Virus record (IMG/VR): IMGVR_UViG_3300044609_000721
Reading direction: 5' to 3' (one strand)
Length of the DNA stretch: 64,000 nucleotides
DNA from: a virus
Under the pieces are notes generated by a model. It saw only the letters and a list, made by a program, of their open reading frames with translations. It ran no database searches and was not told the DNA's origin. A program made the translations under genes and the position numbers. This document shows positions 29,534 to 45,805 of the stretch, piece by piece. Numbering within the stretch: the first letter of the stretch is position 1; each line of letters starts with the position of its first letter.

Positions 29534-29540
29534 TATTTAT
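29534..29540 (-). promoter_or_regulatory. Late promoter (ATAAATA)
   Basis: Overlaps the gp7 stop, 29 nt upstream of the 29505 ATG. Confidence 0.7.
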
Positions 29541-32500
29541 GATTGATCAAAGGTCACCGCAGTACCATCAAATGATACAGATGTTGAATCGAATAGGAAA
29601 CTCTCTTCATTTTCATCTACTTCATTTATAATTTCAATAGTGGGATATGCATAATTTGATCCACTATTCACTAGATCGACTCTGGATACACCAACTAATG
29701 CTTTGATTTGAGCATCAAATCCAGTAGCAGAGTCAATACTTACCGAAGGTCTTGATGTATATCCGTCCCCACTTGATGTAACCGAAAGAGTTTTAATTCT
29801 TCCCTTAATAATGTCTACTAATGCCGATGCATTTCTTCCAAATACAGATCCAGTATAATCGAACGTGACCAGAGAGTTTGATGACTCAATAATAGCAACT
29901 GTTCTATCTTTATCTTCACCTTCAATTTCCAGTTCATCTCCAGTTTCGATTGGAGGAACAACGTCAGCAGCGATAACGTCAGCATCAGAACCAATGTAAG
30001 AGAATGCAACAAAACTGGATCCAGATCTAGGAATTTCTGCAAAAATAATTCTAGAACCAACTAGTTCAAATGCAACTCCAGGTTCCTGGATAACACCATT
30101 CAGTGAAACAATCAAGTTATTTTCTGGTTTAATATTTGAGGACTCGGAACCAGCAGTAACAGTTAGTGAGTAGAATACTTCATCTAACTTGAGGTTGAAA
30201 CTATTTCTGAGTGAGTCAAATTCAAAACTAATATCGTCAAGTTTCCTCAATTTACCAATGTATGAAGAGTGGAATGTTGCCCCAAGTTCTGGGGGTTCTG
30301 AAAACTCAATGATGTCACTGAATGTGGTATATGATTGGCCTGGTGGTTGTAGAATACCATTTACGAATACTAATAAATGACCATCTGGATTTGGATAATA
30401 TGCAGTTCCATTATTGATAGTTACCTTGAATGTACTTTGTACGCCATCAAATCCTCTGAAACTCCTATCAATTCTACCAACAACTTCTCCAACTGAACTA
30501 ATTATAGATCTATATCCAGACTTGGAAATAGTCTGTGCATATTGATTGAATGTTCCCTTAACTCCACTTAGATATAGTCTGTACGCAGTACCAATAGGAA
30601 TAATTCTCTCAACAAATCCATAAGCTTCTGATGAGATTATTTCTGCGTTGGCGATTTGCGCTACACCAACTGGGAAATTGTTATTTGGTTCATAGTATAG
30701 GATGGTGTCTCCGATAGCAAATAGATCTTCAGTTAAATTTCCAACATATAATTCAACTGTACTACCCTCATTGATATAATCAATGATTCGTGCAGTCTGA
30801 GTCAAAATTGCTTCATTATTGACAACTCCACCAATCTCAAATACTGTAGTTTCTTCATCAGGTAAAGTTAGAGTCAATTTATAGATATTTGTCGTTTGAA
30901 TTATATCAGCAAGACCAATTTGAGTACCCTCATAATACTCAACATCAATATAGATATCACTAGTGCTTGAGTAAATTACAGAAGAAACATCAAAATTGCC
31001 TTCATAAAACTCAGTATCTAAAGTTAACTTGGATCCAGAATTGTCAAGTACTGGAGCAGATACACTATAGAAGTTACTAATGGTTGAAATTGCACTAGTT
31101 TTAAATCCTTTTACTTTTTGACCATTTGTGAATGAACCAGTTAGATCTGATACCTGTACTTTACTTGAGACTGATACCACAGTTGCCACATATCCATCAT
31201 CATTTATTAGTATATTTCCGATTGAAAATTGACCAGAATTCATAACAATATCTACATAATTAAAGTTTTCACTGTAACTATATGAATATACAGTTCCATT
31301 AATTGATGCAAATCCTTGTCTGGTGATTGTTTCGCCAACTTTAAAGATCTCAATTGGATTGCTGAAGTTTACTCTAATTCTAGTGAGTAATTTCTTTATT
31401 GTTGCACGGTTAGTAGTGATAGACTTAATCTCACCATTAATTTGAGATGTCAATCCATAGATATAGTCACCAGAATTTAATCCTCCTAGAATACCAGTAT
31501 CATCTATTCTGGATGGGTATATTGAATTTGGTACTGTGATTCCATTTTCTGCAATAATTTCATTGTCTTCAATATATGATGAATTGTTTAGTGTATTGAG
31601 TAAGATTGACATCTTGCTATCAATAAACGCATTAATCTCAGATATTTCAGATGCAGTTAAAGCAATACTAGTATCTGTATATGAATAGAATCCAGTATTA
31701 GGTGCTGGTGATACTAAACTCTCTGCTATGGCCTGCTTCATGTAATCCCTAACTTTAGTGTAGGCAAAGAGACTTTGTACTAACTCACCTTGTAGGGAAA
31801 TGATAGTACCAGTTGCAGCATCAATATATGACTGAGTTGCGAATAGGATTGCACTATTTCCATTTGTCAATAGATCATATACAATCGCATCCATGATATA
31901 CCCCATATCACGTAAGCACTTATCATTTCCACCAGGGACAGAGAATGTTGGGTAATTCTGTAGTGTCACTAGCATTGTCTCTGCCTTGATATAGTTCTTA
32001 TTGAACATAATCAGTTTAGCAGCATTTCTATATGCAATATTTGAAGCACTGTCAGTTGTTCTAGTAATACCAGTTAGGTTTCCATTCTGTACTGCTTGTG
32101 ATAGGATTGCGAATAGAGTAGTAATAGCGGAAGCAACATTAGCACATTTTGGTGTGCTTGTGTCTACAGTTACATCGAGGTCTTTGACTTGAGTTTTGGT
32201 TGTATATCCACCTAAAGTAATGGTCTCATTACGCATGGCCTGAATTGCCATGTCCCTTGCCTGATTAAATGCATATACTGCTTGTACTTCCTCTCCAGCA
32301 AGATATCCATTAGTAATGTACAACTGAGCAGCATCATACATCTTATGGTTTCCACCATAACGAATATTGAAAGACAACTCACCAAGAATCGCAATGATAT
32401 CATCAATACAATTCTGATTGCCATTTGGAATAGTGAACGTTGGATACTGATTCAACATTCTTCCTACTGCAACTTCTGCAATTAGTTGCTTGTTTGCTTC

Positions 32501-35500
32501 AATTAGATTTGCTGCATCAAAGTTTCTATTCTGGTATTGATCTCTCTCTGGTAGAAGAATAGAGATTGCCTTTGTGAATAGAGTATCAATTGCGGATTTA
32601 ATATTTGCACATTGACCACCATAGGTACCATCATCTAGAGTAATTGTATTGTCAGTGTACTTAGGTGTAGACGACCATTGTGCAGAGTATATTGTATTTG
32701 TTCCAGTAATTCTCCAATTATCTACAGCATATTGGCAAAGTCTATTTGTTTGCTCAAGAGCATAGATTGTTGGTAGAAGTTCATCCTTCACATATAGGAT
32801 ATCATTCACAGCATTGATATAATATGTCATAGCATCAATAGTATTAGCATCACCACCAGAAATCAAGTCTGCGATGATTGATGGGATGATATAATCTTTA
32901 ATGTCTCTAATGCAAGTATTTTTACCTTCTAGTCCGTTTGGATAAACAAACGCATTATATGGAACTCCATTCAAGTAGTATGTGAAATAATTAGTAGTTA
33001 ATCCTACAGATTCCTCTGCAATAAATTTCCTGTTGAACCAGAGAGCATTTGACGCATCCTTATATACATCACCAGTTGTGCATAGTACTTCATTGATCAA
33101 TGACCACAAAGTATCAATTTTGGATCTAACGTCAGCGCAATCTCCAGGATCTGTGGTAATGTCAAGAGGCTTAATAGGACTTTGATTTGTGTATTGTGGT
33201 GTTTGTGATAGATCTCCAATAACAGCTTGCTGACATAGAAGATTCATTTGCTCATGAGCATATAGACTTTGCAGAACCTGCTTAGTAATATATCTCAAAC
33301 CGCCATTTTCATCAATATAGAATCTTGCTCCAGTTAAGGTATTATAATTTCCACCCTTTTCAATATCATCAGCAACTGCTTGTAGTAGAAGATTTAGGTC
33401 AAGTTTGCATCTGCTAGTTCCATCACCTGTTCCATCCTCATCTCCTGGAATAATCAAATCAGAATATAGATTCTTCATTCTTCCAGCAGCTTCTTCGATG
33501 ATATAAGTTGCATTCAATCTAATTAAATTAGCTGCATCTCTAAATCTGTGATGTGTATCATCATAGAATTGATATGTGATAATTTTATCAGTTGCAGAAT
33601 ATACTTGCTCCACATCAAATGGGATATCCAAGTATGTGGAAATTATCGCAGTAACTGTTCCAATATTAGTTCTTGTTATAGAAGAAATTGATCCAGTGCT
33701 AATACCTTGGGTTACTATCGCAAATAATGTGGTGATAGAAGATGCAACGTCAGCACAATCTCCAGGGATATAAACTCCTGGTTCTCCAGATTGATCTCCC
33801 TCTACAGTCAGATCCTTCACTTGAGTTCTGGTTGTATAACCACCTAAAGTGATGGTCTCATTACGCATGGCCTGAATTGCAAGATCTCTTGCCTGATTAA
33901 TTGCATAAACAGACTGAGTTTCTTCACCTGCCAAATATCCATTAGTGATGTATAATTGTGCTACATCATACGCTCTATGGTTTCCACCATATTTTACGTT
34001 AAAGCACAATTCATCCAAGATAGAAATGATATCATCAATGCAGTTTTGATTTCCATTTGGTACAGTAAATCCAGGGAAGTTTGCTAGCATTCTTCCTACT
34101 GCAACATCCGCAATTAGAAGTTTGTTAGCAAGAATTAAATCAGAAGCATCTGCGTATCTTCCTGATACAATGTCATCATTTGAAACAAATGACTTATCAG
34201 TTGAAATTGTATCTCCAATAGAGAATGAACCAGACTTCTCACCAAGGAAAACATATTTTAATGCATAGTTAACTCCAATAACCTCTGCTGTGAATCCGCC
34301 ATTAGTTACAATTTGATCTCCTGCCTGGAAGTTTCCTCCCAATAGAGATTTGTATGCCAATTTCTGAACCATTGCAGTTTCATTAGCAGTAAAATCACCA
34401 GTTGAATTGATATATTCAATTTCTAGATTTTGGATAAATTCTCCATTTTGGAAAGTTGTGGAATCATCATATACATTTTCGAATGTTGTTGATGAAACAA
34501 TTTCAAATTCTGGGAATTTACCTTCGACCTTTAAAGTGGAATCATCTAAATCTACAACTTCAATACTAGACTTACTGATATCATCAATGATGACATTGGG
34601 GTATTCTGGTTGTATAATTCTGTTGTATAGCAGAGCAGAGAAAGTACTTGGATCACTAATTGAAATTGATGAAAGTGGTTCACCAGTTGTTGGATCAATG
34701 TATGGACTGATACTTGTTACTCTAGCAAGAATTCCTGTTTTAGCAGAGATGATGTAATCATTAAACTTAATATCCAATAGTCCAGAAGGACTTTCATAGG
34801 TACCAGAAGTTTTACTAACGATAATTTCATTAGTTACTATACTTGTAGTAGAATCTAGGTTGATTTCTTCAACAACAGCAGTTTTTCCGCTGGTGTTTGT
34901 GATAGATTCTTGGAATTGGAAGGTATTTGTATTTTCTAGTTCTGTTACAGAAACTAAATTAGCACTCAATCCTGTTGCAGATGCAAGAATGATTTCACCT
35001 TCTTGGAAAGTTCCATTGATATTGAATACTCTAATGGTGGAAGTTGTTGACGAAATTACAGTCGCTGTAGCAAGGCTCAAAATACCTCTAATTGTCTGAC
35101 CAAGTTCTGGTAGAATACCACTAGAATCTTCAATTGCAATCTCATATGATGGTAGGAATTGCAATGTTAACATTGCATAACTTACCTTTGTTGGTGCAGG
35201 AGGTGGCTCTTTAAATACGATGCTTCCTTGAATGATCTCATATGATTCTACTGGTGATTGTGCAATACCATTCAGAATTACTTGTACTTGACTGGTATTG
35301 GCAATAATTGTAGAACCATCAATAGTTAGTGGGAAAGAAGTTCTTTCACCATCAAATAGATTTGAAATATCATCAATTTTCTGTACATATGAAGTGAGAA
35401 TTTCTTCCGATGAAGTTAGTCTCTTAGTTCTGAATAAAACTTGAGTATTATCAAACTCTTTGTATACAGGTTCAACGAGACCAAAGTTGTCAATATTTGC

Positions 35501-38500
35501 AACTACTGAACTCTCAATCAAATTAACACTCTTTGTCAATTGGAAATCTGTTTTATCAGTCAGTCCTTTTTCTTCATTGTAAACTCCAATTTCACCAAAT
35601 AATTTAAATCCAGTTGGGTGAGTGTTGTCTAGTACAATAGTCTTCCATTGGTCGATTGAAACTGGGCTCTTAATGTTATATGAGAAGGCCTGATATAGAT
35701 AAGAGTCCTGTACCTTCTGTACAATCTCGTTGGTTTTACCAACGTCATCGAGGAACTTACCAGCAGTTTTTGTGATTGAATCGACCTGAATAACTCCTTT
35801 CGCAGCATTGATATTATTGATTGTTCCACTAGATTTAGAAATTGTTCCAGTCACAATCTGACCTTCTGCGAAGGTACCTTCGGTATCGATTAGTTTTAGT
35901 AGTCTAGGACCAATTTGCCATCCATCATTTCCAGAAACATATCCTTTTGCAGAAGAGTTTTCCAGAGAATCTCCCTGATAAACCAATTCACCAGAAAGGA
36001 ATCTACCAGTTTCTACAACTGCTTCTGCAGATCCACCAAATGAATTGGTTAGTAGAATCTGTCTACCACTACCAGTATTCACGAATGAAATATAGTTACC
36101 AGATTCTGCATCTCCTGGTGTCAGAGCAATTCTCAACTGATCATTTTCAAGACCAGCAGTAGTTCCAGAAATAGCATAGTAAATTTGACCAGGAACAATG
36201 TATCCAAATGAAGTGATTGGGAATGCTGCACCCTCACCCAAATCTTGAATGTCAAATGTTATTTCAGACCCATTTCCAATACCATGTGGGAATGGTAGTT
36301 GGAATAGACCAAGATCTAGGTTGATTACGTAGGTAAATGTAGATTTTAGTTCAATTGTTGGTTCGGTACTATATCCAAATCCAGGATTTTTGATTAGAAT
36401 ACCGCTAATTCTACCGTTTCTAATTTCTGCCTCAGCAGTAGCGCCAGATCCACCGCCACCAGTGATTACAACTTCAGGGATAGAAGTATAACCGCTTCCT
36501 GGATCAATTACTTTAATATTGCTCAGTACACTAGTATTGATTAATTGTAAGTTTACTGGGAAAGTGATTTCTGGTCTAAGTGTATAGTCATGGGTATAAT
36601 CGAAACCAAAGTTATTGTTTCTTAATTTTTTGATTTTACCTACGTTCTCACCCTTAACGAAAATAGAAGCTCCAGTTCCTTTTGGTGGAATGATTACCTC
36701 AAGAACGGCACCAGAACCAGCTAGATTTGGACCAAGAATACCATCAATAGCATCAACATCAACAAATGCCTCAGTGTATCCCTTTCCAGGATCCGTAACA
36801 ACAACCTCAATGATTTGGCCAACTGGATCACTATTTCCATCTACTCTAATTCTAACCTTACCTCCGTTACCATCTCCAAGAATTGGTACACCAAAGTACT
36901 CACCTGGTTCATATTCAGTTCCAGGAGTTCTAATTTCAACTCTCTCAATCTTTCTAGATGATTGGATGTCAGTAATGATTGGTAGTTTTTTGTAGAATCC
37001 ACCACCACTGATCAGACGAATCGATGAAATCGATCCAGCAACTTTTGTTGACTCTGTTGAGTATGATGATGTGAATGACTGTGCATTCTTTTCTGGGTCG
37101 ATATCCAATTTAAACTTAAACTTATTAGCACCCGTAGTGACAGTAGCTCCTTCCAAAGAACTAATTTCAAATCTTCCAATGTATGGACTTCTAACTACGT
37201 CAATGTAGGAAGATTTTGCTACTGGACTGAATTCATTAATTCTGGATGGGTCTGCATAGTAACTGATATTAGAAACATCATCCGTAACCTTAAACGAAAT
37301 GAATGGAGATACCCCAGGAGCATCTAATCCAGGAGTTCCTCTTCTTACAATATTTTTGAATGTGTATTCAATCTTGTTGAGATTATCTCTATAGAATGAT
37401 AGGTAATATCCTTGGTTTGATGGATCTGATACATCAAACGTATACTGTTGCCCATAAATGAATTTAAATACTGGATGCTTGACGTAAATTAAGATTTGCG
37501 TACCAGATCCAATAAACGATCCTGGAACTTCCCTTATTTGGAAAATAAATTCTCTCTGAGAAAGAACCTGATCTACGTAGAAAGATCCATCTGCATAGGT
37601 ATATTGTGGACTTGTTGATCCAAAAATATTATCTCCAGCATTTAAGTAATGTGAAGTTGCACTTCTAATGTAAATTCTGTTTGTATTTGAAATTTCATCA
37701 ATTTGAAGAGTCTTCTTGAGATTTGTGATTAGAGTAATCTTAGTTACAGAGGAAAGACCTGCAATAGTGACACTATTTCTTGCAGTATTGAAACTAAAAT
37801 ATGAACTTCCTAGAACAACTACAGAACCTTTAGCATACGGAGATCCTGCAATAATTTCATCAATTCTTACTGCATAGTCATCATCACTATATGGTTTAAA
37901 TGTTGCCTCTACTTCTACTGGGATATTAATTGCAAAAGTTCCTGGAGAAGTATTTACTACGCCCTCAAATCCATAATTTACAATTTCATTGATGGATTCA
38001 TCCGAACTTCCTAAAGTGCCAGAATCAACTACAAAAGAACCAGTAGTATCAGCAACATAGATGTAATTATTGGAATAATCGATATCTACAATTTTTGCAG
38101 ATGCAATGATAGCATTCAGACTATTTCTTTGAAGAAGATTTGTACCAACATTGAATCTAAAATCTTGATTGATGTGTAATTGTCTAATGTTATCTAACTT
38201 CGATACATTGAAGTAATTGAAGAAGAATTTGCCAAATGCTTTAGATGAAAATACTGCCTTTCTTCCACCTGGAGAAGGAACTGTAGCAGTTCTTGTACTC
38301 CAAGAATCATATACTGTGGTAGGAATATGATAATCTTGTGTCAATCCTGATGTAGCAGCATTGAAATCTAATATTTGAAGTCCATCTGGACCAAGTGCAT
38401 ATGGGATATTGATGAGTTCTAAATTATTAACTACAGGAATAGTAATATTGGATCTGGTAATATCAAAACTATTATTTGTCAAATTGATAGTACCCATTCT

Positions 38501-41500
38501 CTCTGAGTCTGCATTCTTATCAAACTTCATTATGAAACCACTAGGATTCGCATAGTCAAAACCACTAAATTCTGCAGTAGGAGCACTGGTGTATGCTATA
38601 GCGTAATTACTATATCTGAACTCATCCAACTTGACTGGCCAAGAATTATATGATGTAGTTGATCCAATTTCTACTGTTGATGGATTTAGATTGAAACCAG
38701 TGGTAATCTGTGCAACAGATGAACCATTAAAATATAAAGTATAAGTTGCAATCGAAGAAGATGTGTTATAAGATTTGCTTACTGAAATGTGTCTATATCC
38801 ACTACTCAACAGAGTCACTGCGTTAGTGATAGTAGTAAACTGTGAAATGGTAGCCCCACCATTGGAGATTCTTAATTTTCCAAAAGTTGATGGTGAAGAA
38901 CTATCAGCAAATACCGAAACTTTAATTGAATTTGTTCCATCGGTTATGGTCAATAAATCTGGAACTTTTGCAGATGCTGCAGTATCCCACTTAAACCATC
39001 CTTCAATGGTCCAAACGTTTGACTGTGTTGTTAGTGCTGTTGCAGATAATTTTGCATTTTGTGAAATAGTGTAGGCATTGGTGCCGAACTTGGGATCAGT
39101 GTTTACACTAACTGTTCCTGTGGATGTTAGGTTTGCATATCTACCTACAGTATCTGAATATGAAGATCCCTTATATAAGAACTGTGTTCTATTTTCAATG
39201 ATATTACCAACTAAAGTAGGATCTCCAGAAACATCAGATGAACACTTGGAAATTTCTACTCCTTCTAGAGAGGTCATCTCATAAGAATTCAAGATATCAC
39301 CATTAAACTTACACTTAATGATACCAGAATGCAATTGCGATGTGATATCCACTGCAGTATATCCGATTGCAATTTCACCAAATATATCGATGGATGATTT
39401 TGCTGCGGATAGTGAAGTGATACTTGGGATTGAATATTCTTTATTGAAGATTAAATCTCCATCTGCATCAACTTTAATTAGTGCTAGTTTTGTTTTTGTT
39501 GATGTGGATGAGTTCTCTAATGCAGATGTGATGTATAACTCATCATACTCATCGATAAGCAGGCTCAGATCTTCGAACTTGGTATTTGAATATGATATTT
39601 CCTTTTGCCAAATCGTGTTGATCTTAGATCCATCAATCTTACACTTCACTAGAAGAATATTATCTGCTGCGGTTGACTGACCCAAAATATAAATGTTATT
39701 GTCACTATCAACTTGAATTGACTGTAGTTTTTCTGATGAAGATGTTGAAGTAATTTTTCTCTTGATTAGGACATCACCACCATTAGAAATATAGAATACA
39801 ATTCCGTCGTTTACTCCATTGCTATTTGTTGTGGTATATCCACACGCAACTACATTCTCTCCATATGCTGCAATATCTGTGATGTAATCATTTCTGTTTA
39901 CTCCACTAATACCAGCAAGTTCTCTTTGCCAAGATAGAGATACTTCAGTGCCACTAGAATTTTCAGTATATTTTGCAATGAAAATATCTGGGTTGAATGC
40001 AGATGCTGAAAGTGGATTTGGGTAAGTTTGTCCAATTACATAAACATCTAGTCCATTTTTAGTTACGGATAATAATTGACAACGCTTCGCCTGTGCCGAA
40101 GGTTGAATAGATGTTAGTGATTTTGACCATAGTGTAGTACCCTCAGCATTTAACTTACTGATGTAACCATGGATATCACCATTTGTTGAAGTCACTGATC
40201 CAACATAGTATAGATTTTTGTTCTGATCTACAAATGAATTGTTAATGTTTACTCCAGATTGATACTTTTTGTTTACTGAATAGTATACTGATCTCTTTTG
40301 GATTTGTGGGTGAGATATTCTAATTTTTGGATTGTCAACATATCCTCTACCAGAATTTGTGATATTGATTTTATCGAGGATACCTGTTTTTCCTACTACT
40401 GCCTTGACCTCGGCTTCTTGACCACTAATACTATCGATAAATGCTTCAACTTCGATATTTGGATCATATCCAATACCACTTACTTCTACACTTACTTCCT
40501 CTAAACCTTTTACGGTAATGACCTTGAGTGTTTTACTTGTAGGTTCCATGATTGGAGTTGTATCAACACTCACAAAGTCACCGATTTCCATATTGTGTGG
40601 TACAGCGGTCTGTACTACACCAAAATATTCATCCTGTGCGGTATTGTATTCGTATGTGTATGAAGTGATCTGTTCTCCTTGAATGGATTTAATTGATGCA
40701 GATGCACCATATCCTTCTGTACCTTCATCATCAAAAATCAGTCTATCATTGACTTGATAGTTAATACCTGGGTTTTCGATCAAGAAGTCTGAAATTTTTG
40801 CTTCTTCAAACTTTGTTGTAGTTTCAACTTCAATATCAACCTTTGATGAAATATCAATCTTGGGGAAATAATCGAAGAGTTCTAACTTAGATTCTTCGAA
40901 AATTTGATCAGGATCACTCGCCTCAGATGAATCGATGAAACCATCTCTATTTTCATCCTCAATTTCAAACGTTAGGACATCACCATTCTCTAGAGTTAGA
41001 GCATTTGTACTTTCATTTGGATCTCTTTCTACATCAATATCAACATTTTCAAATGGTGCTCTGTATCTAACAATACCAGTAGGGATGTTAGACTGGATTG
41101 CAAACTGCGTTAGATTCCAACTATCTGGAATTGAGTAGAAGTTTGGTCCAATGATATATGGGAAAGCAGCACTTCCATCTGCATTTAAAGTTACGAAATA
41201 AGCATACGTACCTTCTGGGAATTCAGGAGTTTTGGTGAATCTGCCATTATATTGATCGAGATAAAATGCCTCACTTCTGAATACATACTCATAATCTTGA
41301 ATGAAAGTTCCTGCAGGGAAGTCTTGTAAAGATGGACCTGCAATTCTATATGGTTCTGGGTTAGTTACACTATTGAATACCAGATTCGTCTTAAGGCTGT
41401 AACTACTTTGGATTGGTACAATGTTGCTACTTAGATTTGTTGGGTCAGACAGTCCATATGGACCATAAATGGGATTGCCATCAAATGCCCATCCAATGAT

Positions 41501-44500
41501 TGGAGAGTGAACAATACCAGACTGCTTCTCTACAATAACTCCATTTTCTACAGTTAAGTTATCGCCAAGTACATATCTTAGTTGCTTTGGATTTGATACG
41601 TGCCCATATTCTCCACCAAATTGCTTGTTAAATCCTTCGAAGATAGAACCGTTTGCATAATCAAAGTTTGTGTTGCTGTTTAAGTTATAAGTCCACTCAA
41701 AAATTTCAGTTTGGAAATCTGCTCCTTCTCCAATAGATTCTAGTCTAATTTGAGTAGTACCTGGTTTATACCCAATACCTCTATTCAGAATAGTGATGGA
41801 AATCACTCTTCCTGCTTCTAGTCCTTCGGATTGAATATTTGCTCTTGCTACAGCACCATAACCATCACCAGTAATAATGACCTTAGGAGCGGTAGTATAA
41901 CCGTTACCAGAGGCGATAACTGCAATTGATACAATCCTGCCATTATTTACATACGCCTGTGCTGCAGCGCCTTCTCCGCTGCTTAGAACGACTTTAGGCT
42001 CTGATGTGTAATCTTGACCAGATGATACTACAAGTACTTCTTTGATTGGTCCTCTAACAAACGCCTCAGCAGCTGCTCCAGACCCTCCTCCACCAGTAAT
42101 TGTAATGGTTGGTTTTGATGTATATCCTGAACCTGGGGTATTTACTAAAATTCTAGATACAACTCCTTTTGTGACGATAGCAGTTGCTGATGCACCCTCT
42201 CCGTCGCCACCACCAGAAATTGAAACTAGAGGAGATGATGTGTATCCAGAACCACTATTTGTTACAACAATCTCAGAAAGAGATCCATTTACGACAACAC
42301 TACCAGATGCACCAGTACCATTTCCACCAACAAAATCAAGTACTGGTGGATTTGCTGCGTCATAATTCTTTCCATAATTTAGTATATTTACTTTAGTTAC
42401 TCCACCATATTTGTAGGTGGAATCTGATTTGTAGTTCCATACAGAAATACCATTCACAAATGAACCAACAGGACCATATTGTGTTTCTGGTTTTAGTGAG
42501 ATTGTTGATGGTACTTTGGGGAATCTATATAATTTTCTTTGGTTGCCTGGAAGTAATGAAGTACCTACAAAGGGACCAATCTTATAGTTTGGAATACCTG
42601 ATGTAGCTACATAGACATACTTGCCATTAAAGAAAGTATTCTGAATATTGGTAGCAAACTTATTAATTGAGTTGTTGATTGATGGAACATCACTCTTTCC
42701 TTTGTTCAAGTCAATCGAGATTAGGATATTGCCTTGAGGATTTAGAGTTGCTGGTTGAGGAAGTTCGTATTTGAATACAGTTGCGCTTTCTCTTGAAGTT
42801 ACTAGGAACGTTCCATTGTATACAATTGGGTTTGCACCATATACAGTAACTTGATCTCCAACTAGAAGACCGTGAGCAGATGTGCAATTGACAGTCGCAG
42901 TTTGATCATTGATACCACCATATGTGATACTATCGATCTGCAGTAGTTTTTTGACGTTATACAACCAAGATCTGATTAGATTGTTATCTTCAATAGATCC
43001 TAATTTAGATACTGAAAGTTTATCTCCAGGTAGATAGTAACTACTTTCATCAGTTAGTTGGGTATTACCAGACTCAACGATACCAAGAACTGATAGAACT
43101 ACTTCTTCGGTAGTTCCCTGATTCGAATAGATGTAGAAGTTTGATGTACAAATAGTTCCAGAATCCCAAGACGCTGGTTCCTGATTAATGCCTCTAGTAC
43201 ATTCAATAAATTGAGTTAGTGATTTCTCCTTATAGCGAATTATCTCAGTACCAATAATAACTTCTCCGTTCTTTTCTGGCCATCCAATTGTGGAGTCTAC
43301 AGTAATAATAGAATCTTGATCTGATAGTGGTTCTGCAAGTCTAGTCTTATATGGAATGACGAATTTACCATTAATGGATTCTTCAGAAAGAATCAATTCA
43401 TATACGTCAAAGTTTGCAGTCTGAATTGCAGTGAAGTTCTCTACTGTTGCAGATGCATACAGAACATTAGTATCCACTACATCCGCATTTTGCTCTAGAA
43501 GAGAGTCTTTTAGATTTTGGGGATTTCCAGAGATTAGTTTAGCACGAAGGATGGTATCAATAGACCAAGTTGCTGCAGATGGTTTAATGATCTGGTCTTT
43601 TGGATAGGTGATATCAATTTCAACACCGTATAGAATTTTAAATAGGTATGCAATTGAATTCTTAGTACCCTTAGATGCATAGAAATCTTTTATAGTTCTA
43701 AGAACATTTGAGATGTCAATAGAATCAATATCCAGTTGAGGCATTCCTGGAAGATACTGAGATGTAATCTTCTCCATGATTTTTCTGAGGAATACCGCAT
43801 CAAGTCCTTTAACATCGCTACCACTGATGTGAGATGCTTTGATGGATTCTGATTCTGATTTAAATACAGCATTATCCTCAGAATCATATTCTACGATTCC
43901 ACTAACTCCTCTGCTACACTGAGCAAATTCTGACTTTGTATAGTTTTTACCTGGGTTAATTACACGAAATCCAGTAATTTCACCAATTCCAATTTGAGCA
44001 GAAGCTTTTGCTCCAACTGGAGAAGAGATGAATACCTTTGGTGGAAACTCAATCGAATAATTTTCTCCAAATTCAGTAATATTGATATCGATAATCTGCC
44101 CGTTGAAAACTGTCGCTACAGCCTTTGCGCCAGTTCCTCCAATTGGGTTACCTAAGTTATCTACTCTATCATCAACGATGTATACGCTAGGAACGTCATC
44201 ATATCCAAAACCTCCAGATAGAAGTTCAATACCAATAACTCTTCCAAAACTATCAACTTCAACATCCAAAATTTGAGCACCAGTTGGTTCAATTACCGAA
44301 ACTCTTGGAAGTTCTGTTTGACTGTATCCAACTCCACCAGAGATGACAGTGATTGAAATGAGTTCACCAGAGGCGTTTATATTGCCCTGTAGGAGTGCTG
44401 TAATTCCATTTGCGGCGTCTGGGGCATCAATGTAGATTTGAGGCGCTGTAGAGTATCCAGAACCACCTTCTAAGACTTGTACAGATAGAACTACACCATT

Positions 44501-45805
44501 CTGATTAACGACAACATTTCCTACTTTTGCTCCAGATGGATTAACAAACTGAATTCTTGGTACGAAATCATATCCACTTCCACTATCGATAATATGGATT
44601 TCGTCAATACCACCATTATCGTTTACTGTAACGAGTCCTTTCGCAACAGATCCTTCACCATTAGTGGGAGCTTGGATAGAAACTAGTGGAGGATTTTCCT
44701 TGGAGTATCCTTTTCCAGAGTCAATCAGTGTGACTGTTTTGACTCCACTTACTAGAGCTTCTGCAGTTGCATTAGTACCAGTACTCTTAACGAGAGAGAC
44801 TTTTGGTGTATTTTCTACTTTATATCCAGATCCACCATTTTTAACTAGGATAGATTCTAGTTGACCAGAATCATTTACTACAGAAACTGCAGAAGCATCG
44901 CTACCAACATTAAGTAGAGGTGCATTGATGTATGCTACAAAAACCGATTCTGTTGGATACTGTTTAAAGATGATAGTGTCAGAATACAGACTAAAATCTT
45001 TAATTGGTGTTAGTAAATTTCCATCTACAATTGCAATAACTAAACTTGTAGATGAAGGAGAAGATGCAACTCCATTCACCTTAAGTTTGAAGTCATATCT
45101 AACTTCTTCTACGTTAGTATTGAGAATTGGTAATTGGTCAAATACCGCAATTTCAGATTCTTGGAAACCCTTTAGATAGATAATTTTAATATCTTCACTA
45201 GTATCTCCAAGATTTATTGGATCATATTGTCTTGGTGGATTAGTGAATCTAATTTTGTCACTTAAGATTTGATAATCAACGCCAGGAATTAAGTATTCAT
45301 TGTATAATTTTACAATGACATGCTCATTTGATGGTGGATAAACTGGTTCGTTATTTACCGTTAAATCGAACTCGAAGTTTATACCATCAAATTCTCTATA
45401 TGGATTGAATAGAGGAACTAGTTTTTTATTGAATTCTGCATATGAAATATCAGGAGTTAGGATGACATTTGGAGACTTCCTGACAAATTCATAATAAATT
45501 ACTTCATCATCAATCAGTAGAGTTCCATTTTCTTCTGGAAATCCATCTGTTGTTTCTACTTCAATATTTCTGATATCTGCAGAGATGTCAGAAATCAACT
45601 TCGTATTGCTTCTTAACTGAGATACTTCATACTTAGAAAGATTGAAGTAGTCTGGTAGATTATTTAAAATGCCAACAGGCCCGCCACCTCTCTCCTGAGA
45701 ACTATAATATGCTCTCAGAAATTTCTCGAAGAGTGGATTTTCCTCTTTAATGAAATCTGGTACTTGATTTAGTACAGAAAGGGATGCTGATGCTAAGTTA
45801 TGCAT
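29537..45805 (-). CDS. gp7: Giant baseplate wedge initiator (5422 aa), multidomain
   Basis: QVPDFIKEENPLFEKFLRAYY N-terminus, IKDFYASKGT.NSIAYLFKILYG, QDSYLYQAFSYNIKS, HPTGFKLFGE motifs; lies between gp6 and gp8 as in T4; contains YHYH-like, beta-propeller-like, LamG-like and phycobiliprotein-like segments. Confidence 0.92.
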   Translation of the reverse strand: MHNLASASLSVLNQVPDFIKEENPLFEKFLRAYYSSQERGGGPVGILNNLPDYFNLSKYEVSQLRSNTKLISDISADIRNIEVETTDGFPEENGTLLIDDEVIYYEFVRKSPNVILTPDISYAEFNKKLVPLFNPYREFDGINFEFDLTVNNEPVYPPSNEHVIVKLYNEYLIPGVDYQILSDKIRFTNPPRQYDPINLGDTSEDIKIIYLKGFQESEIAVFDQLPILNTNVEEVRYDFKLKVNGVASSPSSTSLVIAIVDGNLLTPIKDFSLYSDTIIFKQYPTESVFVAYINAPLLNVGSDASAVSVVNDSGQLESILVKNGGSGYKVENTPKVSLVKSTGTNATAEALVSGVKTVTLIDSGKGYSKENPPLVSIQAPTNGEGSVAKGLVTVNDNGGIDEIHIIDSGSGYDFVPRIQFVNPSGAKVGNVVVNQNGVVLSVQVLEGGSGYSTAPQIYIDAPDAANGITALLQGNINASGELISITVISGGVGYSQTELPRVSVIEPTGAQILDVEVDSFGRVIGIELLSGGFGYDDVPSVYIVDDRVDNLGNPIGGTGAKAVATVFNGQIIDINITEFGENYSIEFPPKVFISSPVGAKASAQIGIGEITGFRVINPGKNYTKSEFAQCSRGVSGIVEYDSEDNAVFKSESESIKASHISGSDVKGLDAVFLRKIMEKITSQYLPGMPQLDIDSIDISNVLRTIKDFYASKGTKNSIAYLFKILYGVEIDITYPKDQIIKPSAATWSIDTILRAKLISGNPQNLKDSLLEQNADVVDTNVLYASATVENFTAIQTANFDVYELILSEESINGKFVIPYKTRLAEPLSDQDSIITVDSTIGWPEKNGEVIIGTEIIRYKEKSLTQFIECTRGINQEPASWDSGTICTSNFYIYSNQGTTEEVVLSVLGIVESGNTQLTDESSYYLPGDKLSVSKLGSIEDNNLIRSWLYNVKKLLQIDSITYGGINDQTATVNCTSAHGLLVGDQVTVYGANPIVYNGTFLVTSRESATVFKYELPQPATLNPQGNILISIDLNKGKSDVPSINNSINKFATNIQNTFFNGKYVYVATSGIPNYKIGPFVGTSLLPGNQRKLYRFPKVPSTISLKPETQYGPVGSFVNGISVWNYKSDSTYKYGGVTKVNILNYGKNYDAANPPVLDFVGGNGTGASGSVVVNGSLSEIVVTNSGSGYTSSPLVSISGGGDGEGASATAIVTKGVVSRILVNTPGSGYTSKPTITITGGGGSGAAAEAFVRGPIKEVLVVSSGQDYTSEPKVVLSSGEGAAAQAYVNNGRIVSIAVIASGNGYTTAPKVIITGDGYGAVARANIQSEGLEAGRVISITILNRGIGYKPGTTQIRLESIGEGADFQTEIFEWTYNLNSNTNFDYANGSIFEGFNKQFGGEYGHVSNPKQLRYVLGDNLTVENGVIVEKQSGIVHSPIIGWAFDGNPIYGPYGLSDPTNLSSNIVPIQSSYSLKTNLVFNSVTNPEPYRIAGPSLQDFPAGTFIQDYEYVFRSEAFYLDQYNGRFTKTPEFPEGTYAYFVTLNADGSAAFPYIIGPNFYSIPDSWNLTQFAIQSNIPTGIVRYRAPFENVDIDVERDPNESTNALTLENGDVLTFEIEDENRDGFIDSSEASDPDQIFEESKLELFDYFPKIDISSKVDIEVETTTKFEEAKISDFLIENPGINYQVNDRLIFDDEGTEGYGASASIKSIQGEQITSYTYEYNTAQDEYFGVVQTAVPHNMEIGDFVSVDTTPIMEPTSKTLKVITVKGLEEVSVEVSGIGYDPNIEVEAFIDSISGQEAEVKAVVGKTGILDKINITNSGRGYVDNPKIRISHPQIQKRSVYYSVNKKYQSGVNINNSFVDQNKNLYYVGSVTSTNGDIHGYISKLNAEGTTLWSKSLTSIQPSAQAKRCQLLSVTKNGLDVYVIGQTYPNPLSASAFNPDIFIAKYTENSSGTEVSLSWQRELAGISGVNRNDYITDIAAYGENVVACGYTTTNSNGVNDGIVFYISNGGDVLIKRKITSTSSSEKLQSIQVDSDNNIYILGQSTAADNILLVKCKIDGSKINTIWQKEISYSNTKFEDLSLLIDEYDELYITSALENSSTSTKTKLALIKVDADGDLIFNKEYSIPSITSLSAAKSSIDIFGEIAIGYTAVDITSQLHSGIIKCKFNGDILNSYEMTSLEGVEISKCSSDVSGDPTLVGNIIENRTQFLYKGSSYSDTVGRYANLTSTGTVSVNTDPKFGTNAYTISQNAKLSATALTTQSNVWTIEGWFKWDTAASAKVPDLLTITDGTNSIKVSVFADSSSPSTFGKLRISNGGATISQFTTITNAVTLLSSGYRHISVSKSYNTSSSIATYTLYFNGSSVAQITTGFNLNPSTVEIGSTTSYNSWPVKLDEFRYSNYAIAYTSAPTAEFSGFDYANPSGFIMKFDKNADSERMGTINLTNNSFDITRSNITIPVVNNLELINIPYALGPDGLQILDFNAATSGLTQDYHIPTTVYDSWSTRTATVPSPGGRKAVFSSKAFGKFFFNYFNVSKLDNIRQLHINQDFRFNVGTNLLQRNSLNAIIASAKIVDIDYSNNYIYVADTTGSFVVDSGTLGSSDESINEIVNYGFEGVVNTSPGTFAINIPVEVEATFKPYSDDDYAVRIDEIIAGSPYAKGSVVVLGSSYFSFNTARNSVTIAGLSSVTKITLITNLKKTLQIDEISNTNRIYIRSATSHYLNAGDNIFGSTSPQYTYADGSFYVDQVLSQREFIFQIREVPGSFIGSGTQILIYVKHPVFKFIYGQQYTFDVSDPSNQGYYLSFYRDNLNKIEYTFKNIVRRGTPGLDAPGVSPFISFKVTDDVSNISYYADPSRINEFSPVAKSSYIDVVRSPYIGRFEISSLEGATVTTGANKFKFKLDIDPEKNAQSFTSSYSTESTKVAGSISSIRLISGGGFYKKLPIITDIQSSRKIERVEIRTPGTEYEPGEYFGVPILGDGNGGKVRIRVDGNSDPVGQIIEVVVTDPGKGYTEAFVDVDAIDGILGPNLAGSGAVLEVIIPPKGTGASIFVKGENVGKIKKLRNNNFGFDYTHDYTLRPEITFPVNLQLINTSVLSNIKVIDPGSGYTSIPEVVITGGGGSGATAEAEIRNGRISGILIKNPGFGYSTEPTIELKSTFTYVINLDLGLFQLPFPHGIGNGSEITFDIQDLGEGAAFPITSFGYIVPGQIYYAISGTTAGLENDQLRIALTPGDAESGNYISFVNTGSGRQILLTNSFGGSAEAVVETGRFLSGELVYQGDSLENSSAKGYVSGNDGWQIGPRLLKLIDTEGTFAEGQIVTGTISKSSGTINNINAAKGVIQVDSITKTAGKFLDDVGKTNEIVQKVQDSYLYQAFSYNIKSPVSIDQWKTIVLDNTHPTGFKLFGEIGVYNEEKGLTDKTDFQLTKSVNLIESSVVANIDNFGLVEPVYKEFDNTQVLFRTKRLTSSEEILTSYVQKIDDISNLFDGERTSFPLTIDGSTIIANTSQVQVILNGIAQSPVESYEIIQGSIVFKEPPPAPTKVSYAMLTLQFLPSYEIAIEDSSGILPELGQTIRGILSLATATVISSTTSTIRVFNINGTFQEGEIILASATGLSANLVSVTELENTNTFQFQESITNTSGKTAVVEEINLDSTTSIVTNEIIVSKTSGTYESPSGLLDIKFNDYIISAKTGILARVTSISPYIDPTTGEPLSSISISDPSTFSALLYNRIIQPEYPNVIIDDISKSSIEVVDLDDSTLKVEGKFPEFEIVSSTTFENVYDDSTTFQNGEFIQNLEIEYINSTGDFTANETAMVQKLAYKSLLGGNFQAGDQIVTNGGFTAEVIGVNYALKYVFLGEKSGSFSIGDTISTDKSFVSNDDIVSGRYADASDLILANKLLIADVAVGRMLANFPGFTVPNGNQNCIDDIISILDELCFNVKYGGNHRAYDVAQLYITNGYLAGEETQSVYAINQARDLAIQAMRNETITLGGYTTRTQVKDLTVEGDQSGEPGVYIPGDCADVASSITTLFAIVTQGISTGSISSITRTNIGTVTAIISTYLDIPFDVEQVYSATDKIITYQFYDDTHHRFRDAANLIRLNATYIIEEAAGRMKNLYSDLIIPGDEDGTGDGTSRCKLDLNLLLQAVADDIEKGGNYNTLTGARFYIDENGGLRYITKQVLQSLYAHEQMNLLCQQAVIGDLSQTPQYTNQSPIKPLDITTDPGDCADVRSKIDTLWSLINEVLCTTGDVYKDASNALWFNRKFIAEESVGLTTNYFTYYLNGVPYNAFVYPNGLEGKNTCIRDIKDYIIPSIIADLISGGDANTIDAMTYYINAVNDILYVKDELLPTIYALEQTNRLCQYAVDNWRITGTNTIYSAQWSSTPKYTDNTITLDDGTYGGQCANIKSAIDTLFTKAISILLPERDQYQNRNFDAANLIEANKQLIAEVAVGRMLNQYPTFTIPNGNQNCIDDIIAILGELSFNIRYGGNHKMYDAAQLYITNGYLAGEEVQAVYAFNQARDMAIQAMRNETITLGGYTTKTQVKDLDVTVDTSTPKCANVASAITTLFAILSQAVQNGNLTGITRTTDSASNIAYRNAAKLIMFNKNYIKAETMLVTLQNYPTFSVPGGNDKCLRDMGYIMDAIVYDLLTNGNSAILFATQSYIDAATGTIISLQGELVQSLFAYTKVRDYMKQAIAESLVSPAPNTGFYSYTDTSIALTASEISEINAFIDSKMSILLNTLNNSSYIEDNEIIAENGITVPNSIYPSRIDDTGILGGLNSGDYIYGLTSQINGEIKSITTNRATIKKLLTRIRVNFSNPIEIFKVGETITRQGFASINGTVYSYSYSENFNYVDIVMNSGQFSIGNILINDDGYVATVVSVSSKVQVSDLTGSFTNGQKVKGFKTSAISTISNFYSVSAPVLDNSGSKLTLDTEFYEGNFDVSSVIYSSTSDIYIDVEYYEGTQIGLADIIQTTNIYKLTLTLPDEETTVFEIGGVVNNEAILTQTARIIDYINEGSTVELYVGNLTEDLFAIGDTILYYEPNNNFPVGVAQIANAEIISSEAYGFVERIIPIGTAYRLYLSGVKGTFNQYAQTISKSGYRSIISSVGEVVGRIDRSFRGFDGVQSTFKVTINNGTAYYPNPDGHLLVFVNGILQPPGQSYTTFSDIIEFSEPPELGATFHSSYIGKLRKLDDISFEFDSLRNSFNLKLDEVFYSLTVTAGSESSNIKPENNLIVSLNGVIQEPGVAFELVGSRIIFAEIPRSGSSFVAFSYIGSDADVIAADVVPPIETGDELEIEGEDKDRTVAIIESSNSLVTFDYTGSVFGRNASALVDIIKGRIKTLSVTSSGDGYTSRPSVSIDSATGFDAQIKALVGVSRVDLVNSGSNYAYPTIEIINEVDENEESFLFDSTSVSFDGTAVTFDQS
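31590..34160 (-). repeat. Five tandem ~150-170 aa helical, phycobiliprotein-like repeats within gp7
   Basis: Each begins [YF]xDAxxLIxxNxxxI; conserved Cys-x-x-Asp (NCIDD, RCKLD, TCIRD, NCIDD, KCLRD) followed by GGN/GGD/NGN; repeats 1-4 end in CA[DN][VI]xSxIxTL. Confidence 0.85.

Follow-up and report, generated by a model that had tools for sequence, protein, structure and literature searches.

The giant gp7-like baseplate protein encoded in this 64-kb window (the whole stretch of viral DNA that was analysed) carries phycobiliprotein beta-type globin domains as built-in modules. Four of these, R1 to R4, keep a beta153-type second site, composed of a cysteine (Cys2) and an Asp of helix A, beside a beta82-type Cys1-x-x-Asp. 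The homology of the sites is solid, and R1 to R4 are a plausible acceptor, and thereby a plausible target for the long-unexplained phage enzyme CpeT. In a literature search, we found no earlier description of such domains in cyanophage baseplate proteins.

A giant baseplate protein with five tandem repeats

The virus is a T4-like cyanomyovirus, and its closest isolate is S-CREM1 (92% amino acid identity across the repeat region). The giant ORF is flanked by a gp6-like gene and a gp8/10-like gene, and both its wedge domain and its place in the baseplate gene block identify the product as gp7-type. The Pfam family Baseplate_wedge (PF23786) matches with 30.4 bits (cut-off 27), YHYH (PF14240) is a further Pfam match, and the orthologue in S-CREM1 bears the annotation 'baseplate wedge subunit'. 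As with T4 gp7, which has 1,032 aa, the gene stands after gp25/gp6 and ahead of gp8/gp10-type genes, and the annotation of its orthologues is gp7 or baseplate wedge initiator; however, the giant protein is fivefold longer, and its YHYH, phycobiliprotein-like and other inserted modules are missing from the T4 protein.

BLASTP and hmmsearch revealed five tandem repeats in the giant protein, with 67% identity between R1 and R4 and 24-33% for the others. R1 is supported by hmmsearch, its residues, an AlphaFold model, structural matches to beta subunits and hhalign -glob, R2 to R5 by hmmsearch, alignment and residues.

29537..45805, (-): ORF for the giant gp7-like baseplate wedge protein, 5,422 aa, carrier of R1-R5
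33677..34177, (-): R1, phycobiliprotein beta-like domain; Asp39-equivalent D3886 (34148-34150), Cys1 C3922 (34040-34042, NCIDD), Cys2 C4017 (33755-33757, PGDC)
33059..33562, (-): R2; Asp39-equivalent D4090 (33536-33538), Cys1 C4133 (33407-33409, RCKLD), Cys2 C4223 (33137-33139, PGDC)
32528..33073, (-): R3; Asp39-equivalent D4250 (33056-33058), Cys1 C4298 (32912-32914, TCIRD), Cys2 C4399 (32609-32611, GGQC)
32069..32539, (-): R4; Asp39-equivalent D4430 (32516-32518), Cys1 C4466 (32408-32410, NCIDD), Cys2 C4554 (32144-32146, TPKC)
31565..32053, (-): R5, first site only; Cys1 C4630 (31916-31918, KCLRD), Asn4594 in place of the Asp39-equivalent, Ile in place of Cys2

According to the hmmsearch bounds, R2 and R3 as well as R3 and R4 abut with no linker between them. 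The first site has its Cys and Asp in all five repeats, whereas only R3 and R5 also have the Arg of C-x-R-D; this residue is Asp in R1 and R4 and Leu in R2. The second site is present as a pair or not at all, with the Asp39-equivalent and Cys2 both found in R1 to R4 and neither in R5. The Cys motifs and codon positions given for R1 to R4 in a preliminary description of this DNA are exact (aa 4017, 4223, 4399 and 4554), and the four cysteines fall into a single alignment column that holds Ile in R5. Because cysteine is scarce in the giant protein (22 of 5,422 residues, 0.4%) and clustered in the repeats (13 of the 22 lie inside the 874-aa repeat region), and because the column is also occupied by Cys in related proteins, we do not attribute it to chance. 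The spacing of 88-101 aa between Cys1 and Cys2, which had been noted as a caveat, is likewise correct, and the surplus length corresponds to a long G-H loop.

Relationship to phycobiliprotein beta subunits

The stretch from aa 3850 to 4750 passes the gathering threshold of Pfam PF00502 (E 2.4e-14, 54 bits, cut-off 22.2), with three of the five repeats matching singly; R5 is the best single match both to PF00502 and to a phycocyanin alpha chain in the PDB. When a profile of the five repeats was compared with the PDB using HMMER, phycocyanin beta chains ranked first in two collinear stretches, which pair Cys1 with C82 and PGDC with PGDC153. When 40 R1-type sequences were aligned globally with 22 CpcB sequences, hhalign gave a probability of 89.7% (E 2e-7) and paired D14 with D39, C50 with C82 and GDC145 with GDC153, with helix H aligned up to the C-terminus; this full pairing was seen in global mode, whereas local hhalign aligned the N-terminal half only.

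The AlphaFold model of R1 (pLDDT 87.9) has six helices, corresponding to helices A, B, E, F, G and H of the globin-like fold, and places Cys145 directly before the last helix (146-165). Foldseek matched it best to a phycoerythrin beta chain (TM 0.68), and its top 50 VIA-align matches are all beta subunits, with Z up to 17.6 and an rmsd of 2.5 A over 142 residues. In these alignments, model residues 1-164 correspond to chain residues from 21-24 through 172, 177 or 184. The X-Y hairpin lies at the edge of what the model covers: alignments begin at chain residues 20-24, residues 1-10 of the model are coil (pLDDT below 50 for 1-7), and the model itself starts at R1.

The structural ranges thus agree with HMMER and global hhalign in equating Cys2 with the beta153/155 bilin cysteine, as the preliminary description had proposed, and we consider homology with the beta153 site highly probable. 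A position away from helix H, which had been named as an observation that would count against the proposal, was not seen, as Cys2 sits at the helix H N-cap in the AlphaFold model. A coincidental PGDC match within unrelated helical domains would fit the rarity of the exact motif in the family, the restriction of local hhalign to the N-terminal half and the low score of the HMMER PGDC stretch by itself (4.5-9.7 bits). This explanation is ruled out for practical purposes, with a vanishingly small probability left to it, by the Pfam score above the gathering threshold, the structural matches, the global hhalign result and the conservation of the Cys2 column over hundreds of copies.

By sequence and by structure, the phage domains are therefore best matched by beta subunits (CpcB, CpeB and cryptophyte phycoerythrin and phycocyanin beta), with which they share the A-H helices of the globin-like fold, a first site of the Cys82 type whose Asp stands at +3, and, at the helix H N-cap, a second Cys that has its partner Asp at position beta39; the long G-H loop is also found in phycoerythrin beta. 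Nevertheless, they are just 15-22% identical to beta subunits, their G-H loop is 17-30 residues longer, and they show no clear X-Y helical hairpin in the modelled part and have no alpha partner. The Arg replacements in R1, R2 and R4 are a further difference, and bilins at the phage sites are putative. Moreover, beta subunits are free 19-kDa proteins, whereas the phage domains are fused in tandem into a 5,422-aa virion protein. AplA of Fremyella is another PF00502-type protein outside the antenna that takes no part in phycobilisome light harvesting, but AplA-like proteins are free cellular proteins and not tandem domains of a phage particle.

Conservation of the second site and its partner Asp

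The domain is limited to cyanophages, in which it was detected in 363 records among 50,697 phage records. Across about 1,440 copies, the first site is nearly invariant, with Cys in 98%, Arg in 92% and Asp in 99%, while 43% of 527 aligned copies, drawn from 157 related proteins, have Cys in the Cys2 column. In R1/R4-type orthologues from IMG/VR, which match R1 with up to 75% identity, C145 is conserved in at least 90%. PGDC occurs in R1 and R2 as previously quoted, but it is not the motif of the family: many phages have GDC in the first gp7 copy, and the general form is P-x-x-C-A-[DN]-V...I..L. A host-linked loss of Cys2 in P-RSM4 and P-SSM7 was considered and dropped, as a fuller search located the Cys2 motifs after large insertions. 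In P-SSM4, Cys1, Cys2 and the Arg-Asp pair are gone from all three domain copies, and the domain thus functions without cysteines as well.

In C-phycocyanin, the conserved beta-Asp39 forms hydrogen bonds with the pyrrole nitrogens of the beta-Cys153 bilin, and the beta153 pocket is completed by alpha-subunit residues (PMC6614406), for which the phage repeats have no counterpart. When about 500 copies with and without Cys2 were compared, the columns that differed most were the Asp39-equivalent, which is Asp in 98% of the copies with Cys2 versus 9% of those without, and the column three residues ahead of it, which holds Arg (77% versus approximately 0). This association between Cys2 and the Asp39-equivalent across the domain family is new here. 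Because the Cys2-bearing copies form essentially one clade, with six changes among 312 copies and two supported independent pairs in a tree-based test, we read the association as conservation and not as repeated co-evolution, which we do not claim from an underpowered test.

CpeT and the possible pigmentation of the baseplate

For about twenty years, the cyanophage genes cpeT, pebS, pcyA and ho1 have been labelled 'a mystery' or unresolved, and this includes what phage cpeT does (PMC3037559). Even phages whose Prochlorococcus hosts have no phycobilisomes carry these genes. A cyanophage-only candidate acceptor with both beta-type bilin sites would turn the cpeT puzzle into simple experiments.

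The preliminary description had stated that no lyase gene lies in the window, which is true of all 64 kb, and had named co-occurrence with phage cpeT as a check. In a sample of 26 cyanomyovirus genomes, the domain and cpeT were found together in 18, neither in 7, the domain only in 1 and cpeT only in none. Contigs from a gp6-based IMG/VR scan for near-complete genomes were mostly too short for counts of presence and absence. The co-occurrence therefore stands as a count, with all 18 cpeT phages having the domain and all 7 domain-less phages lacking cpeT, but it comprises just two or three independent evolutionary events, of which one is the clade P-SSM2/S-SM2/S-SSM7 and another is cluster C (PMC10665884). 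Two phages depart from the pattern: S-B43 lacks cpeT but has domain copies that bear both Cys2 and the partner Asp, and P-SSM4 has kept cpeT with no acceptor cysteine left in any domain copy. In S-PM2 and Syn1, cpeT lies 1-1.5 kb upstream of a giant gene carrying these domains, on the same strand, whereas in most genomes it is 40-60 kb away from gp7, among auxiliary metabolic genes. S-CREM1, the closest relative, has a 159-aa CpeT ORF. Because no bilin reductase and no haem oxygenase were found in the S-CREM1 genome, any pigment would need a host source.

Beta-Cys153 is served by T-type lyases (PMC10452541), and the acceptor geometry of Cys2 plus Asp in the repeats resembles the sites used by CpcT (CpcB Cys153) and CpeT (CpeB Cys158/165); the difference is that the candidate acceptor is a structural virion protein instead of an antenna protein. 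S-B43 and P-SSM4 are exceptions to the joint presence of cpeT and acceptor cysteines. Bilin attachment, the lyase responsible and a function of the pigment, e.g. in light sensing, are what we infer beyond the site homology. The explanation that we tentatively prefer, rating it at slightly less than even, is that the beta-type domains are chromophorylated before assembly. Newly made gp7 would receive its chromophores in the infected cell ahead of baseplate assembly. At Cys2, a T-type lyase of the phage (CpeT) or of the host (CpcT/CpeT) would join a host bilin (PCB or PEB) by a thioether; at Cys1, attachment would be autocatalytic or the work of a host S/U-type lyase. Each virion baseplate might contain a few dozen bilins. 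That a bilin is bound at Cys2 in virions is possible, with the balance tipping a little against it; that phage CpeT is the lyase for Cys2 seems rather unlikely.

It is also quite conceivable, though less probable than not, that the repeats are pigment-free descendants of beta subunits whose only present role in the baseplate is that of helical building blocks or of modules for adhesion; Cys2, the Asp and C-x-R-D would then be retained because they aid folding, cap a helix, take part in redox chemistry or bind another ligand. The three P-SSM4 copies, in which every cysteine and the Arg-Asp pair are replaced, fit such a relic, as do the lack of Cys2 in more than half of the aligned copies, the lack of the propionate-binding Arg at the first site of R1, R2 and R4, and the missing alpha-subunit residues of the beta153 pocket; in addition, no report of bilin, colour or fluorescence in cyanophage virions was found in a literature search. 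On the other hand, packing alone hardly explains why Cys and Asp reach 98 and 99% among roughly 1,440 copies whose remaining sequence is 25-35% identical, and the residues retained are exactly the bilin contacts of both sites. The restriction of the domain to phages of bilin-making hosts and the lack of cpeT in all seven domain-less genomes also argue against a relic.

Alternatively, a bilin could be bound but not via phage CpeT, which would act elsewhere, e.g. on host phycobiliproteins or as a bilin carrier, while Cys2 would be chromophorylated by host CpcT/CpeT or autocatalytically. S-B43, P-SSM4 and the usual distance of cpeT from gp7 are consistent with this route, but we judge it improbable given that none of the 18 cpeT phages is without the domain, that cpeT and the domain are jointly missing in two separate clades, and that cpeT lies beside a giant gene with these domains in S-PM2 and Syn1. 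Furthermore, CpeT of P-HM1, a phage whose gp7 domains bear Cys2, reportedly binds PEB with no transfer onto host CpeB.

If no pigment is bound, the repeats would be a clear case of reuse, in which the fold of an antenna protein serves to build the virion and the ligand residues are still conserved. If pigment is bound, as in the preferred reading, this would be the first chromophore-bearing phage particle and a molecular basis for light-dependent adsorption. In its widest form, which we regard as a long shot, cyanomyovirus baseplates would carry covalent bilins, and phage CpeT (with pebS, pcyA and ho1 where present) would be a virion-maturation enzyme and not a host-metabolism gene. Pigmented gp7 would then act as a photoreceptor in light-dependent adsorption or baseplate triggering. 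Light-dependent adsorption is on record for several cyanomyoviruses (PMC2984593).

Architecture of the repeat-bearing baseplate protein

The five tandem phycobiliprotein beta-like repeats, R1-R5, lie within a single open reading frame (ORF).

29537..45805, minus strand: giant ORF of 5,422 aa, carrying R1-R5

The closest isolate is the Synechococcus phage S-CREM1, to which the giant-ORF region is 82% identical in nucleotides and 92% in amino acids. Because gp25-like and gp6-like genes precede the ORF and a gp8/10-like gene follows it, because its S-CREM1 orthologue carries the annotation baseplate wedge subunit, and because its N-terminal part contains a Pfam Baseplate_wedge segment, it is a baseplate protein of the gp7 type, from a T4-like cyanomyovirus (Kyanoviridae). 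The N-terminal part of this baseplate protein also holds a YHYH domain (PF14240, E 1.6e-28) at window 41180-41790, corresponding to roughly aa 1340-1542.

BLASTP and a profile search delimited the five repeats at about 155-180 aa each, and the profile search of all 64,000 nt found no sixth copy elsewhere in the window. R1 and R4 are 67% identical, the others 24-33%. The four cysteine motifs reported in the preliminary description, with Cys codons at 33755, 33137, 32609 and 32144, are all present at these positions. Their cysteine (Cys2, of the beta153/155 type) occupies a single alignment column, in which R5 has Ile. A chance origin of the motifs is excluded by this shared column and by the scarcity of Cys in the giant protein (22 of 5,422 residues), 13 of the 22 nevertheless lying inside the repeat region.

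Sub-threshold matches to Pfam DUF2654 were observed in R1 and R4, scoring 32.3 bits over the whole region and 21 bits in R1 taken by itself against a cut-off of 25. Both cover residues 88-127 of the repeat, overlapping the phycobiliprotein-type helix G. Phage domains of this kind may be what DUF2654 was built from.

33810-33930: DUF2654 match in R1
32240-32350: DUF2654 match in R4

Correspondence of Cys2 to the beta153 bilin site

Pfam PF00502 scores 54 bits on the repeats against a cut-off of 22.2, and in the PDB the top matches of the five-repeat profile are phycocyanin beta chains, over two collinear stretches, which place Cys1, the beta82-type bilin-site cysteine, on Cys82 and PGDC on the beta-chain PGDC153. 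An AlphaFold model of R1 built on a 40-sequence alignment (pLDDT 87.9) has six helices, the last of which spans residues 146-165 with Cys145 (Cys2) immediately ahead of it. The top Foldseek match of this model is a phycoerythrin beta chain (TM 0.68), and the best 50 VIA-align matches are without exception beta subunits (Z up to 17.6, rmsd 2.5 A, 142 residues). These pair model residues 1-164 with the chain from residue 21-24 up to its C-terminal end (172, 177 or 184); stepping back 19 residues from that end leads to beta153 for phycocyanin and to beta158/165 for phycoerythrins. Against CpcB from 22 genes of cyanobacterial genomes, hhalign covered only the N-terminal half in local mode, and in global mode (probability 89.7%, E 2e-7) it paired D14-D39, C50-C82 and GDC145-GDC153.

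Because the profile, the VIA-align ranges and global hhalign place Cys2 at beta153, and the model puts it right at the start of the last helix of a phycobiliprotein-like fold, the concern that this cysteine might lie away from helix H of a globin fold can be dismissed, and its site is very probably homologous to the beta153 site, a conclusion that we consider solid. The greater Cys1-Cys2 spacing, raised as a caveat in the preliminary description, is accounted for in the R1 model by a G-H loop longer than that of phycobiliprotein beta subunits.

Copies with and without Cys2 diverge most in two columns, both on helix A. A helix-A Asp is present in 98% of copies with Cys2 versus 9% of those without, which mostly have Asn, and the Arg three residues ahead of it in 77% versus about 0. 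Both HMMER and hhalign align this Asp to beta-Asp39, the conserved residue to which, according to a crystallographic study, the bilin on beta-Cys153 is hydrogen-bonded through its protonated pyrrole nitrogens (PMC6614406). As the equivalent position is Asp in R1-R4 and Asn in R5, and thus accompanies Cys2, the entire second bilin-type site is kept, beyond the cysteine alone. In a tree of 312 copies built without the Cys2 and Asp/Arg columns, Cys2 changes state only six times, with only two supported independent pairs; we therefore do not claim repeated co-evolution, and the Cys2-Asp pairing is conservation within one old subfamily.

A search with the profile recovers 1,190 representative proteins; many are giant, and a single protein can contain as many as 34 matching stretches. 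In about 1,500 domain copies taken from 157 of these proteins, the first site is nearly invariant (Cys1 98%, Arg at +2 92%, Asp at +3 99%), and of the 527 copies that align at the Cys2 column, 43% have the cysteine. The PGDC context emphasized in the preliminary description is present in the window repeats, but exact PGDC is rare across the family; the pattern common to Cys2-bearing copies is P-x-x-C-A-[DN]-V..I..L, and GDC is seen again in gp7 copy 1 of Syn9, Syn33, S-SSM5, P-RSM4 and P-SSM7. Metagenomic relatives include proteins 3,000-7,900 aa long, in which as many as 34 stretches match the domain; one whose surroundings were examined lies next to Phage-Gp8-like and DUF4815 giant genes.

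Distribution and gene neighbourhood of cpeT

All 363 domain records and all 331 CpeT records in the phage collection belong to cyanophages. S-CREM1 has a CpeT of 159 aa, and neither a bilin reductase nor a haem oxygenase was found in its genome. We searched 26 genomes directly, using the repeat profile for the domain and PF06206 for cpeT; eight of these genomes were chosen from hit lists. Domain and cpeT occur together in 18 and are both absent from seven (P-SSM2, S-SM2, S-SSM7 and the cluster C phages S-CREM2, S-B68, S-N03 and S-CRM01); only S-B43 has the domain without cpeT, and none of the 26 has cpeT without the domain. The naive hypergeometric probability of this table, about 1e-5 (19 / 1,562,275), is not valid as a test because of the eight genomes from hit lists and because the double-negatives fall into clades: P-SSM2, S-SM2 and S-SSM7 form one clade in the gp6 tree (97% support), and cluster C is another (PMC10665884). 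The expected co-occurrence is seen, S-B43 excepted, but it amounts to two or three events. The marine members among these cluster C phages encode the S-type lyase cpcV (PMC10665884).

In S-PM2 and Syn1, cpeT lies 1-1.5 kb upstream, on the same strand, of a giant gene carrying the domains, separated from it only by tRNAs and a 2OG-Fe(II) oxygenase gene, and the positions of the hits point to this layout in S-WAM2, S-CAM1 and ACG-2014e as well. The full same-strand order, conserved between Syn1 (17-35 kb) and S-PM2 (151-170 kb), is small ORF, cpeT, tRNA genes, 2OG-Fe(II) oxygenase, a giant gene whose product of about 3,800-4,000 aa contains phycobiliprotein-like domains, and gp12, the short tail fibre. 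Syn1 is without cpeT according to Table 3 of Sullivan et al. 2010, which is contradicted by the annotation in its record (GU071105, 19938-20477, Syn1_028; PF06206 match, E 1.5e-35).

Pigmented site or structural relic

A bilin attached at Cys2 is a plausible prediction, which we hold tentatively. Phage CpeT, proposed at the outset as the T-type lyase for this site, is a fair candidate for that predicted role, although less likely than not. In the work of Gasper et al. in 2017, the CpeT of P-HM1 reportedly bound PEB but did not pass it on to host CpeB. Reviews describe beta-Cys153 as a target of T-type lyases (PMC10452541), treat the function of cpeT and the bilin genes in phages as unresolved (PMC3037559), and record light-dependent adsorption for several cyanomyoviruses (PMC2984593). 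No description of phycobiliprotein-like domains in phage structural proteins was found in the literature searched, which lay mostly outside subscription journals.

The main rival, that the repeats are a pigment-free structural relic, is a real though somewhat doubtful possibility, to be weighed against the retention of the Asp39 equivalent alongside Cys2. In P-SSM4 (69000-78500), Cys1, Cys2 and the Arg-Asp pair are replaced in all three gp7 copies while cpeT is kept, as is pcyA according to the literature. Because these copies lost all of the cysteines, they show that the phycobiliprotein-like fold also serves without them, and P-SSM4 provides a natural cysteine-free control. S-B43 has Cys2 copies with the partner Asp, yet lacks cpeT. 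One phycobiliprotein-like copy of S-B43 (MN018232, 137343-137768) contains an in-frame TAA and is possibly a decaying duplicate.
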